NCBI GenBank assembly: GCA_051873995.1
Contig: JBJEFL010000028.1
Coordinates: forward strand, 73,183 to 137,182
Length of the DNA: 64,000 nucleotides
Source of the DNA: Bacillus sp. (in: firmicutes)
GTDB taxonomy: Bacteria > Bacillota > Bacilli > Bacillales > DSM-1321
Direction of reading: 5' to 3'
The notes below the pieces were generated by a model that searched no databases, was not told where the DNA came from, and worked only from the letters and a program-made list of their open reading frames with translations. Made by a program: the position numbers and the translations under genes. Position 1 is the stretch's first letter. Each line of letters starts with the position of its first letter. This document shows positions 1-47,903 of the stretch, piece after piece.

Positions 1-513
1 CGTCATACTGACGGCTGTTCCACTCGAAAAATCCAAAAAACATAATGGAGGAAATAACACGCACCACCAATTGGCTCCTTTACCTTCTCCAAGCGTAATG
101 ACAATTGCTTCATATTCTCCTGCAGGATATAAAAATTGGCCATACAATTTGGTCGGAAACTCCGCTTTTCCGAATTCCACCTTTACCGTTTGCTGTAACC
201 CCTGTTCTTTCACATAGCTCTCCGCTATCGCCTGGATATCGCCCAAATGACTCCGAATAACTCGACGCGCCTCTTCAAGCGACGTTAAATCAGCCACCCA
301 TTCTGTAATATTGGCATTTACTTCATCTCGTATTGCACGTTTGACTTGTTGATCTTGCCCATTATCGCTATTTGCTAGAATACGAAGACGAATCGCCTCA
401 TTCGGAATAATAACCGTTTCACTTTCCGCCTCCACTTGCGGAATATATAAACTAATAATCGTGACCAAACATAATAAAATCATATATAAAGATGCTAATT
501 GATTTCGCTTCAT
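1..513 (-). CDS. spoIIR: Stage II sporulation protein R (3' end runs off the window)
   Basis: Manual translation from ATG 513 (RBS GAAAGGGAG): MKRNQLASLY...EAIRLRILANSD...FPTKLYG..YPAGEYEA...GANWWCVLFPPLCF, the SpoIIR signature; open to position 1; absent from the ORF track. Confidence 0.95.
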   Translation of the reverse strand, partial: MKRNQLASLYMILLCLVTIISLYIPQVEAESETVIIPNEAIRLRILANSDNGQDQQVKRAIRDEVNANITEWVADLTSLEEARRVIRSHLGDIQAIAESYVKEQGLQQTVKVEFGKAEFPTKLYGQFLYPAGEYEAIVITLGEGKGANWWCVLFPPLCFLDFSSGTAVSMT

Positions 514-538
514 TTTCCCCACTCCCTTTCATACAACC

Positions 539-568: not shown

Positions 569-586
569 TAGTAAGATAGATTTTTT
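551..586. terminator. Intrinsic terminator after the ABC operon
   Basis: AAAAAATCTATCTTA-aactag-TAAGATAGATTTTTT inverted repeat with A/T runs on both sides. Confidence 0.75.
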
Positions 587-750
587 AGGTCGTCGAGAAA
601 CCTTATTTTCAACACATCCCCTTCAGACTGACTTGAAAACGTTTGTCAGTCGAGGCGCGCCAGACCGGCGAAGACGTGAATAGAACATATGGTTCATGAA
701 CGGACAAGCCGGGTCAGCAACGAAGAATGCGAGCGTTTTTCAACAGTCTG
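587..750 (+). mobile_element. MITE-like repeat family A, copy 1 (longest, 164 bp)
   Basis: AGGTCGTCGAG...CAACAGTCTG, flanked by a perfect 17-bp direct repeat AGTAAGATAGATTTTTT (570-586, 751-767); related copies at 22648, 29196 and 47261. Confidence 0.75.
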
Positions 751-809
751 AGTAAGATAGATTTTTTCAAAAGTAAATACTCCTTATGTAGAAATAGGAG
801 AATCTTCTA

Positions 810-1904
810 TTATCGACGATCAATCAGTTTAATTCCGAGTCCCATCAATACGATACCAATCAATATCATCAGTAATACAGGGTACATTAATGTTGGCCAA
901 TCTTGGCCATAAATCGTCGCTCCTTTTAACGCTTCCATCGCATAGGTAATCGGCATAAATTTCGATAAAACAATCATCACATCGGACGTGACAATTTCCA
1001 AAGGCCAATACGCTCCCCCAATCATAGCCATACTGACAGAAACAAGCGGGATAATTACATTATACTGTTGAATATTTTTGACCAATGATGCAATGAACAA
1101 AGTCAGGGCAATGATGCAAAAAACATACGGAATAAGAATTACCAACGTCTTTCCGAATGCTCCATAGAAATTAATGTGCAATCCGTAACGGAATACAAGG
1201 AAAACAAGCGCCACCTGAACATATCCTGTCATAAAGCAATAGAGTAAATTCCCCGCATACATCTCCCCTTTGCTCACCGGCGAAAGTAAAATCCGATCCC
1301 ACACCCCTTCCTGCTTCTCAGTCAAAATGGATACGACATTAAACGCGATCGTATAGATGACAAAAAACAAAGAAAAACCAAAAATTGATTGTAAGCTAGA
1401 ATCATAGATAAATGATTCATCTGATTGAAAGCTTACCTTTTCTATCTCAAAATTTTGATAGTCTTCTAGTGCATCTAGCTTTTCTGCTAACTTTTGCGTA
1501 TCCGCAGCAGGCAAGGAAGCAATATATGTTTGGCGTGCTTGTTTTTGATAAGCACTTAATATTTCATATTCGACCAGCTGCTCATTTTGACTGTTTGCCG
1601 ATACATAAATCGTCGCTTCATCCTTCTTCAATTCCACAGCGAGCTCATTCTTATTTTCCTTCACCCTCGTCAATGCCGCTGATTTTCCATACCACACATA
1701 CGAAAAAGTATCCATTTCATTTAATTCATTCAACAGTGGCTGCATACTTTCTTTTGATTCAGTCGAAAAAACGGCTATTTCCGTTTTTGTCGTAAAGTTC
1801 ATTCCAACAACATAAGAAAAACCGATGATCCCTAACGTCAACAAAATAAATGACCATGGACTTCTGCGCAATAATTTAAACTTTGTAAACAAAATGGCAA
1901 ACAT
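810..1904 (-). CDS. ABC-2 type exporter permease (LnrN/YfiN-like)
   Basis: 364 aa; N-terminal TM, extracellular domain, five C-terminal TMs; EKQEGVWDRILLSP and GGAYWPLE motifs. Confidence 0.85.
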   Translation of the reverse strand: MFAILFTKFKLLRRSPWSFILLTLGIIGFSYVVGMNFTTKTEIAVFSTESKESMQPLLNELNEMDTFSYVWYGKSAALTRVKENKNELAVELKKDEATIYVSANSQNEQLVEYEILSAYQKQARQTYIASLPAADTQKLAEKLDALEDYQNFEIEKVSFQSDESFIYDSSLQSIFGFSLFFVIYTIAFNVVSILTEKQEGVWDRILLSPVSKGEMYAGNLLYCFMTGYVQVALVFLVFRYGLHINFYGAFGKTLVILIPYVFCIIALTLFIASLVKNIQQYNVIIPLVSVSMAMIGGAYWPLEIVTSDVMIVLSKFMPITYAMEALKGATIYGQDWPTLMYPVLLMILIGIVLMGLGIKLIDRR

Positions 1905-9524: not shown

Positions 9525-9690
9525 TCTTTTCATCTCCTTCCGCCCTGAATCATTTCCTGAAACAGAGTTATATCTAGAAAGTGAAAAACCTTTCACCATC
9601 ATAATCAAACATGCTTTTAATTATAACAAGCTACTATTTGAAATGCAACTGATTGTTGTATAGACAGAACATTTTCATCTATGAAAGTAA

Positions 9691-22597: not shown

Positions 22598-22610
22598 TTT
22601 GCACTATATA

Positions 22611-22647
22611 AAAAACCGACTGAATCATATGTATTCAGTCGGTTTTT
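22611..22647. terminator. Bidirectional terminator
   Basis: AAAAACCGACTGAAT / ATTCAGTCGGTTTTT. Confidence 0.8.
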
Positions 22648-22757
22648 AGGTTGTCGAGAAAACCTCTTTTCAACACATCCCCTTCAGATTGACTTAAAAA
22701 CGTTTGTCAGTCGAGCCAGGCCAGCACCAAAGAATATGAGCGTTTTTCAACAGTCTG
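22648..22757 (+). mobile_element. MITE-like repeat family A, copy 2 (internally deleted, 110 bp)
   Basis: Same ends as copy 1 (AGGTTGTCGAG...CAACAGTCTG) and shared CAACACATCCCCTTCAGA...CGTTTGTCAGTCGAG core; abuts the terminator T-run. Confidence 0.75.
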
Positions 22758-29087: not shown

Positions 29088-29195
29088 AAAAAGATCTCCC
29101 ATTCCTTTTATTTGGCCTTCTTTACGTCTTTTAGCATGCATTGAATCCCTGATGTCAATCGATAGTGAATATGGATAATTGAAATGTAGTTATTT

Positions 29196-29259
29196 AGGTT
29201 GTCGCATAAACGGACGAGCTGGTCCAGCAACGAAGATTACGAGCGCTTTCGACAGTCTG
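29196..29259 (+). mobile_element. MITE-like repeat family A, copy 3 (minimal, 64 bp)
   Basis: AGGTTGTCG...CGACAGTCTG, flanked by an 8-bp direct repeat AGTTATTT (29188-95, 29260-67); shares CAGCAACGAAGA..GAGCG with copy 1. Confidence 0.7.
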
Positions 29260-29261
29260 AG

Positions 29262-29894
29262 TTATTTTATTCCACTTAGTTCTATACCCTTCAACAGTAA
29301 GCTCGTTTGTACATCAATGTATTCCTCTAATGTATACATCTTTTGCAATGCCCACCTTCGGAACCCCCACATTTGTCCTTGAACAAAAATATTGTGAGCA
29401 AGCATTTTTATTCGTTCCTCGGACAAGTCAATTTCATTATTTTCCTTGCATTTCCTTAGTAAAACTTCAAACATCGCCACCATTTCTGTTTCTTTATTCA
29501 AAACATATGGCAATGCATCCTTTGACAAGGATTTCGTTTCTTGATACATGACCAGCACTTCATCCTGCAATTCATCTACAACTTTAAAATAGTTCGCAAT
29601 TCCTTGTTTCAGGCTGACAACGGTGCCCTCGGCCTTTCCAAGGTCTTTTTCGATACGATCTTTTACCTCATCATAAATACTGTCGCACACCAAATAGAGG
29701 ACATCCTCTTTTGTTCGGATATACTCATACAATGTGCCGATGCTAAATCCGGAGGCTTTCGCAATTTCTCGCGTCGTTGTACCATGATAGCCTTTTTCTT
29801 TAAAGAGTGTTACAGCCCCCTTAATCATTTGGTTGCGCCTTTTTTTGATCAATTGTTCATCTTTCACGGAAGCATGAATGGATTTCCTTTTCAC
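29262..29894 (-). CDS. TetR/AcrR family regulator of the acyl-CoA/icmF operon
   Basis: HTH KGYHGTTTREIAKASGFSIGTLYEY; start ambiguous (GTG 29894 or 29900). Confidence 0.9.
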   Translation of the reverse strand: MKRKSIHASVKDEQLIKKRRNQMIKGAVTLFKEKGYHGTTTREIAKASGFSIGTLYEYIRTKEDVLYLVCDSIYDEVKDRIEKDLGKAEGTVVSLKQGIANYFKVVDELQDEVLVMYQETKSLSKDALPYVLNKETEMVAMFEVLLRKCKENNEIDLSEERIKMLAHNIFVQGQMWGFRRWALQKMYTLEEYIDVQTSLLLKGIELSGIK

Positions 29895-39407: not shown

Positions 39408-39510
39408 GAAAGACGCAAGCGCTCGTAGTCATTGTTCCTTATTATTCGATTAAGATAAAGGAAACACAAAGTACACTAGTCGCTACGTGCTGGAGCTAGA
39501 CAGTTTTCAA
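39408..39510 (+). repeat. Intergenic repeat family B, short copy
   Basis: GAAAGACGCAAGCGC...TTGTTCCTTA...AGATAAAGGAAACAC..AAGTACACTAGTCGCT...GCTAGACAG, shared with 47667-47860; starts right at the uvsE stop. Confidence 0.7.
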
Positions 39511-39535
39511 AATTTATACTTTTAAAAGAAGCTAA

Positions 39536-47177: not shown

Positions 47178-47260
47178 GTCTCACACTCCTCATCATTCGT
47201 ATTATTTAGTATATCTTATTATGACTGGAAAGTTTAATAAGAAAACCCTTTTCTATTCAT

Positions 47261-47350
47261 GTCTTCGCCAGTCTTGGCGCGCCTCGACTGACAAACATTT
47301 TCAAACCAGTCTGAAGGGAACGTTTTGAAAATAAGGTTTCTCGACAACCT
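47261..47350 (-). mobile_element. MITE-like repeat family A, copy 4 (left 90 bp, inverted)
   Basis: Reverse complement matches the first ~90 nt of copy 1; flanked by a 22-bp direct repeat with one mismatch (47239-60, 47351-72). Confidence 0.75.
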
Positions 47351-47480
47351 AAGAAAAACCTTTTCTATTCATCTAAACGGGCACCTTCAGCACGGTCAGA
47401 ACTATAGCGCGCATTCTTGATTTTCTCGTCCATTTATGAAAAACTACAATCATACATATAGAAAGGAGAAAGTGAATCAT

Positions 47481-47666: not shown

Positions 47667-47860
47667 GAAAAGCGCAAGCGCCCGTCTAGCGACGTATGAG
47701 GCTCTCAGGATGAGAGTCACAACGGCGTTGTCACAGGACGTGACGACCTTAGCCGTTGTTCCTTACTGTCTGACTGAGATAAAGGAAACACGAAGAACGA
47801 AGTGATTCGATGTTGACGAAGTACACTAGTCGCTGGGCGCTGAAGCTAGACAGCTTTCAA
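47667..47860 (+). repeat. Intergenic repeat family B, long fold-back copy
   Basis: GAAAAGCGCAAGCGCCCG..AGCGAC...GTCGCTGGGCGCTGAAGCTAGACAG; ends are complementary; homologous to 39408-39510; starts right at the ywhB stop. Confidence 0.75.
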
Positions 47861-47903
47861 GCTTCAGCATTATATAACTTTCTTATCTTTTAAGAAAAGT
47901 GCA

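Follow-up and report, generated by a model that had tools for sequence, protein, structure and literature searches.

A terminator-associated MITE family in a gut Bacillaceae genome, probably derived from an IS1182-family element, and its candidate helper

The short repeats found in a 64,000-nucleotide stretch of a gut Bacillaceae genome (C28:73183-137182; hereafter the window) are very probably copies of a non-autonomous MITE derived from an IS1182-family IS, and a 1556-bp element of that family, designated IS-X, is its likely helper. The elements are short (33–228 bp), occur at approximately 27 loci, and contain no transposase gene, which are the characteristics of a MITE, and their typical target-site duplication in this genome consists of a whole terminator stem-loop of 31–36 bp.

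The source draft, a MAG from a gut member of the Bacillaceae that is related to Peribacillus faecalis, has a size of 3.79 Mb in 247 contigs with a G+C content of 38%; the 90%-identity protein cluster that includes its PyrG has members named Peribacillus faecalis and Bacillus sp. The public contigs of the species are metagenomic, one of them labelled human gut. When copy 1 of the window was compared with the whole genome by BLAST, 37 pieces at about 27 loci were obtained with E-values reaching 1e-81, which excludes a chance origin of the family, put at some 27–30 loci in all. An earlier note on the window, made from its sequence alone, had predicted many more copies genome-wide from the four that it recognized, and the approximately 27 loci detected by BLAST bear this out. 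The four copies themselves proved to be real, with the boundaries of copies 1–3 unchanged and the start of copy 4 shifted. Alignment of the copies revealed nested deletion forms of 228, 164, 110, 100, 64, and 33 bp; the deletion series proposed earlier was thus retained, except that copy 4 belongs to it as a form of 100 bp, not 90 bp. The longest form (228 bp) was located at C176:25912-26139, six copies of the 164-bp form were present in the genome, those compared being 95–98% identical to each other, and the 100-bp form was truncated on the right. In the shortest forms, the two ends were fused into 32–33 bp (C242:26858-26890 and C185:7970-8001), and the aligned deletion forms shared no core except the ends. 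The only ORF touching copy 1 was a 61-aa frame that runs out of the element. The window contains no transposase, as had been stated, and the ends of the candidate helper were found elsewhere in the genome.

Four parts can be distinguished in the MITE from left to right: the outer end (T)AGGTTGTCGAGAAACC, about 21 bp of spacer, an inner repeat that resembles a second end (CAGACTGACTTGAAAACG), and the right end CGTTTTTCAACAGTCTG. When AGGTTGTCGAGAAACC on the left was compared with AGACTGTTGAAAAACG, the right end in reverse complement, 11 of 16 bases agreed, in line with the imperfect terminal inverted repeat described previously, and the ends are IS1182-type imperfect inverted repeats with the consensus CAG-N3-GT-N-GA-N-AAA. 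The inner repeat forms a good inverted repeat with the right end, and the intervening 127 bp fold into a long imperfect hairpin. The outer end was regarded as the working terminus because the target duplications always adjoin it and the minimal 33-bp forms retain it.

Copy 1 (587–750, plus strand), which represents the 164-bp form, has the outer left end AGGTCGTCGAGAAACC, the inner end-like repeat at approximately 624–641, and the right end TTTTTCAACAGTCTG, and was 95–96% identical to the three other 164-bp copies compared. Its target is a bidirectional terminator-like hairpin (549–586) located between an ABC-2 permease gene (810–1904, minus strand) and spoIIR (1–522, minus strand). The 17-bp duplication AGTAAGATAGATTTTTT, present at 570–586 and 751–767 on the plus strand, consists of the 3′ arm and T-run of this hairpin, and the proposal that the exact repeat is the right arm of a terminator was therefore confirmed. 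Copy 2 (22648–22757, plus strand), an internal-deletion form of 110 bp, lies directly after the terminator hairpin of a DUF2529 gene (22610–22647), with the end of the convergent pyrG following it, so that it sits between two different hairpins of the two genes, and no duplication was detectable in its flanks. Copy 3 (29196–29259, plus strand) is a 64-bp form made up of 9 bp of the left end and 55 bp of the right end, with a TetR-type gene on one side and an IcmF-like mutase gene on the other, and the exact 8-bp repeat noted around it, AGTTATTT, was present at 29188–29195 (plus strand) and 29260–29267.

Copy 4 was inverted, as had been described, but homology placed its start at 47251 instead of 47261, giving a 100-bp element (47251–47350, minus strand) in which the left 100 bp are kept and the right end is missing. 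Copy 4 lies around a small palindrome in the promoter region from which an M50-type protease gene and a tautomerase gene diverge. The 22-bp direct repeat with one mismatch reported for this copy exists (47239–47260 on the plus strand and 47351–47372); however, 10 of the 22 bp (47251–47260, ATGAATAGAA) match the family consensus, and only 12 bp are certainly target sequence. One possibility is that the repeat arose from a microhomology deletion after an insertion with a 22-bp duplication. A Bacillaceae-1 RNA (Rfam RF01690, 81.8 bits; 47702–47768, minus strand) adjoins copy 4, and a diverged second copy of this RNA region, which was below the Rfam threshold, was found 8.3 kb upstream (39426–39527 versus 47750–47877, 77–80% identity). 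The window also contains an L31-Firmicutes ribosomal protein leader (RF03156, 45.8 bits) at 9534–9567 on the minus strand.

Across the genome, the flanking duplications had a different sequence at each locus and ranged from 8 to about 36 bp. Because the hairpin of each locus differs in sequence, the flanking repeats are not part of the MITE repeat, and the reading of the earlier note, which took them for target duplications and not for repeat consensus, was upheld. A whole terminator stem-loop was duplicated at six loci, namely C5:32108 (33 bp, exact), C176 (31 bp, one mismatch), C42 (33 bp, two mismatches), C103:41433 (35 bp, four mismatches), C1:67421 (about 35 bp), and C22:64691 (a diverged pair), and the duplicated stem-loops at these loci were preceded by an A tract and followed by a T tract. 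Exceptions to the whole-hairpin rule were copy 1, in which half of a hairpin (17 bp) was duplicated, and copy 3, with its 8 bp of non-hairpin sequence, while copy 2, the copy on C215, and two copies in the relative G005 had different hairpins on their two sides. Targeting of hairpins was found at the six loci here, in the relative G015, and for IS-X, and the exceptions were window copies 3 and 4.

The two 35-bp terminators duplicated around the element at C103:41433-41595 differed by a compensatory pair, A-T versus G-C at the same stem position, which was seen in two strains (this genome and L185:1094-1330). Since the change in the stem is compensatory, both terminator copies remain perfect hairpins. 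This pair points to either selection acting on the two terminators or a repair process that makes them symmetrical.

Unoccupied sites with a single copy of the repeat, which had been expected if the elements inserted by transposition, were found both within the species and in another species. At C5:32108, the contigs from SRR30616824, SRR28678146, and SRR30616826 contained one 33-bp hairpin with 100% identical flanks and no element, whereas this genome and ERZ27229681 contained the 164-bp element and a second copy of the hairpin; the occupied and empty sites differed by exactly 164 + 33 bp. The MITE is polymorphic for presence and absence within the species, and it has been active recently. 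At the site of copy 1, the relative G003 lacked an insert and had only one copy of the orthologous hairpin, as predicted for an empty site. No such insert was found at the copy 3 site in three genus relatives (G003, G005, and G009), the copy 4 site was empty in four genus relatives, and the C42 site in genus relatives had no insert and one terminator hairpin. No strain polymorphism was observed at copies 1 and 2 and the C176 copy, for which every public contig found was occupied: copy 1 was present in all four metagenome contigs found, and copy 2 is considered fixed because its spacing was identical in 10 of 10 public contigs among the matches listed. The orthologous site of copy 1 in a further relative (G002:C57:20215-20859, L138) carried an insert of about 150 bp that is unrelated to the MITE and begins within the hairpin that copy 1 targeted. 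Other elements may use this hairpin repeatedly as a landing site.

No two MITE ends separated by 1–2 kb were found in the assembly of this genome itself. Contig C24 ends 55 bp past an end-like sequence, AGATTGTCGAGAAACC, and a gene neighbouring this contig end was used to reach L185, a 7.5-kb public contig of the same species. In L185, the end-like sequence of C24 belongs to IS-X, a 1556-bp IS1182-family element at positions 1331–2886. The IRL of IS-X, CAGGCCGTTGAGAAAG, itself forms a terminator hairpin, and its IRR is ...GGTTTCTCGACAATCT; the reverse complement of the IRR matched the MITE outer left end at 15 of 16 bases, and the IRL matched the MITE right end at only 12 of 16 bases. The two ORFs of IS-X, of 190 and 308 aa, scored 210.6 and 264.1 bits, respectively, against the IS1182 profile NCBIfam NF033551, each alone falling below its cut-off of 270 bits, and jointly they covered profile positions 6–174 and 245–487, which is nearly the whole profile. 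Pfam searches gave scores of 97 bits for DUF772 and 96 bits for DDE_Tnp_1_6. The suspected IS1182-type origin is thus borne out by the termini shared with a transposase-bearing IS1182 element (15/16 and 12/16), and the full-length IS with matching ends that had been suggested as a search target exists in the species, with its ends lying at contig ends of this genome. These similarities of the termini make IS-X the likely helper that would mobilise the MITE in trans.

In this genome, contig C61 ends and contig C44 begins with the IRL side of IS-X, and C24 ends with its IRR side. At least two copies are present because there are two IRL-side contig ends. The body of the IS is absent from the assembly, so that no intact copy can be read here. 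The flanks in C61 and C24 carry an identical 27-bp hairpin, AAAAATGTTATATTTTATAACATTTTT, from which it follows that IS-X made a whole-hairpin duplication of 27 bp. In several MAG contigs (L089, L102, L106, L111, L185, L200, and L201), the two hairpins flanking an IS differed from each other. L195, L200, and L201 share one common right flank and have different left flanks, and L185 joins C103 to C24, whereas the C61 and C24 flanks agree in this genome. Most of the contigs with two different hairpins were read as assembly joins across different IS copies.

Relatives whose transposases share 89% and 58% identity with that of IS-X also had ends of the IS-X type. The 89%-identical IS occurred at at least six other chromosomal sites, with a 32-bp whole-hairpin duplication at L195, and other, more distant IS1182 elements had hairpin duplications of 14–22 bp (L077, L082, L104, and L113). 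The transposase is split into orfA (190 aa, DUF772) and orfB (257–308 aa, DDE) at a conserved A_AAA_AAG heptamer, a layout observed in L185:1419-2929, L195-L204, and L205-L210, that is, at many independent sites including the 58%-identical lineage. Past the heptamer, translation in the −1 frame gives further conserved protein sequence, (V/A)LKP(R/K), and the two-ORF transposase is colinear with single-ORF homologues such as P0009. These sequence features fit production of the transposase by programmed −1 frameshifting. The DUF772/IS1182 cluster is among the programmed-frameshift candidates reported previously, and single-ORF fusion homologues exist (PMC3711429); IS-X and its relatives, with orfA and orfB joined by a −1 shift, resemble this cluster without material difference, a likeness that concerns the helper and not the MITE. 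In three relatives of IS-X (L198, L199, and L202), a 28-bp IRL segment, CAGGCCGTTGAGAAAGTCCTTTCTCAAC, occurred twice in tandem. In L199 and L204, the right flank was the reverse complement of the left flank, which suggests insertions in both orientations at one hairpin in different strains, or assembly joins.

Other IS1182 elements were considered as the full-length partner and rejected. Five contigs of the bin with an IS1182 transposase (C188, C144, C153, C107, and C147) had different ends, and none of the IS1182 elements of the relatives G015, G008, and G004 carried MITE ends; the survey of these three genomes yielded only a degenerate copy with the IRR TTGACTACAGTCTG. C188 (1569 bp) is probably a bin contamination, or else reflects a very recent transfer. 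The ends of C188, CAGACTGCTGACAAAG, resemble the MITE right end.

It is improbable, though worth weighing, that the MITE is of the same kind and is mobilised by another IS1182 element with CAGACTG-N-TGACAAAG ends, similar to C188, and not by IS-X. The right end of the MITE (reverse complement CAGACTGTTGAAAAAC) matches the C188-type IRL at 13 of 16 bases and the IS-X IRL at 12 of 16, the right end of the MITE in G015 matches the C188 type at 14 of 16, and C188-type elements also duplicate hairpins, a scan with the C188 transposase having found full-length elements with such duplications. At the outer left end, in contrast, the C188-type IRR agrees with the MITE at only 11 of 16 bases compared with 15 of 16 for IS-X. 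The C188 transposase is, moreover, 99% identical to that of a Eubacterium MAG, with relatives in ruminant-gut Clostridia, whereas IS-X is physically linked to large contigs of the chromosome of this organism.

Two further explanations depart from an IS1182 origin. In one, the repeats would not be transposons but a structured non-coding RNA or regulatory module between tandem terminators, with the flanking repeats generated by local duplication or recombination. The long imperfect hairpin formed by the inner 127 bp, 73% conserved between genera, and the compensatory A-T to G-C change in the hairpin pair at C103:41433 agree with such a module; nevertheless, the DNA z-score of this fold is an unremarkable −1.4 only, none of the four window copies matches an Rfam family at the gathering score, and the deletion forms have only their ends in common. 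The flanks are also locus-specific and equal to the local terminator, the empty site within the species lacks exactly the element and one repeat, and the termini match a transposase-bearing IS, which together leave this explanation very little probability. That the MITE belongs to another terminator-duplicating family, such as the IS30-family IS1630-like elements, is hardly credible: its termini match IS1182 elements with scored transposases, and no IS30-type similarity of the ends was seen in these comparisons.

For the favoured IS1182-derived MITE, the following course of insertion is proposed. The IS-X DDE transposase, which would be produced through a −1 frameshift at A_AAA_AAG that fuses OrfA to OrfB, would bind the MITE ends in trans, and the 3′ ends of the MITE would be joined to the two target strands at the feet of an extruded hairpin or cruciform. 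These feet would be near each other in space and a palindrome length apart in sequence, and because of this separation gap repair would copy the whole stem-loop to both sides of the element. The length of the duplication would be set by the hairpin, not by the enzyme, and a stagger equal to the palindrome length would explain why duplications of 19–36 bp follow the hairpin present at each site. That a cruciform is recognised is part of the model only. Insertion would cost little, and copies would accumulate behind genes, because the upstream gene keeps a terminator. The family would then be a natural example of structure-directed transposition in which the target hairpin sets the duplication length, would show how such elements pile up 3′ of genes harmlessly, and would explain assembly breaks and duplicated terminators in Bacillaceae genomes.

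Hairpin targeting is a known habit of the IS1182 family, and no new kind of mobile element is described here. ISCbo5 and ISBma2-like IS1182 elements of Clostridium botulinum group III and C. novyi-NT have nearly all their sites at hairpin-forming inverted repeats at gene ends, probably terminators, with intergenic insertions that spare the genes (PMC3098183). They resemble the present family in their IS1182-family DDE transposase and hairpin or terminator targets; however, ISCbo5 is an autonomous IS, whereas the abundant element here is a gene-less derivative of 33–228 bp, and the main text of that report describes no duplication of a whole hairpin (PMC3098183). In staphylococci, IS1272 and TnSha1 of the same family target stem-loops of varied sequence and size (PMC5678879, PMC4923244). 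The stem-loop is deleted by IS1272 and no duplication is left (pathway a), the sole pathway observed, while the model in Fig. 13 of that study also proposed a pathway b, unobserved there, in which the whole stem-loop is duplicated (PMC5678879). The MITE and IS-X thus correspond to pathway b, in contrast to the stem-loop loss of pathway a, and the MITE as donor, IS-X as candidate helper, and the known targets offer a system for the cruciform-foot model of the IS1272 authors. A tandem duplication of a terminal repeat segment has been described for IS1272L (PMC5678879), to which the double left end of the MITE and the doubled IRL in L198, L199, and L202 are similar. The IS1182-derived MITEs of Methanosarcina acetivorans, the partner of which is ISMac2, are likewise short (160–169 bp), multi-copy, and gene-less, with ends matching an IS1182-family IS; they differ in having direct repeats of 0 or 4 bp and an archaeal host, and duplication of a hairpin was not reported for them (PMC3852290).

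The MITE family was detected in four of the 11 congeners and, outside the genus, in one species. In G015, at least 43 matches were obtained among 96 candidates; for five of them the identity with the query copy was 100%, which is suggestive of a recent burst. Nine of the 10 copies examined in G015 were flanked by duplications of 19–33 bp that fold as hairpins (−4 to −21.5 kcal/mol), and the tenth had a hairpin duplication as well, beside a truncated end; in G005, three of the five copies examined had hairpin duplications of 23–25 bp. The 127-bp core with its CAGACTG-type ends was conserved across genera with 73–91% identity. The outer left terminus was species-specific, and G005 and G015 carried a different type (GTGTAGACAAA). 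A tentative and rather doubtful reading of this pattern is that the MITE is built of modules, a core that is conserved and an outer end that can be exchanged, and that it stays mobile by tracking or capturing the terminus of whichever IS1182 element is resident; selection may, in addition, preserve the function of both duplicated hairpins, as the compensatory change at C103:41433 suggests. If this were true, every insertion would create a lasting tandem terminator. In G015, an unrelated intergenic repeat (GACTATAAAGTTTGCCCGTTG...GCACTTGCTTTCCGCG...) recurred beside MITE and IS loci, as seen in the right flank of L041 and in L071.
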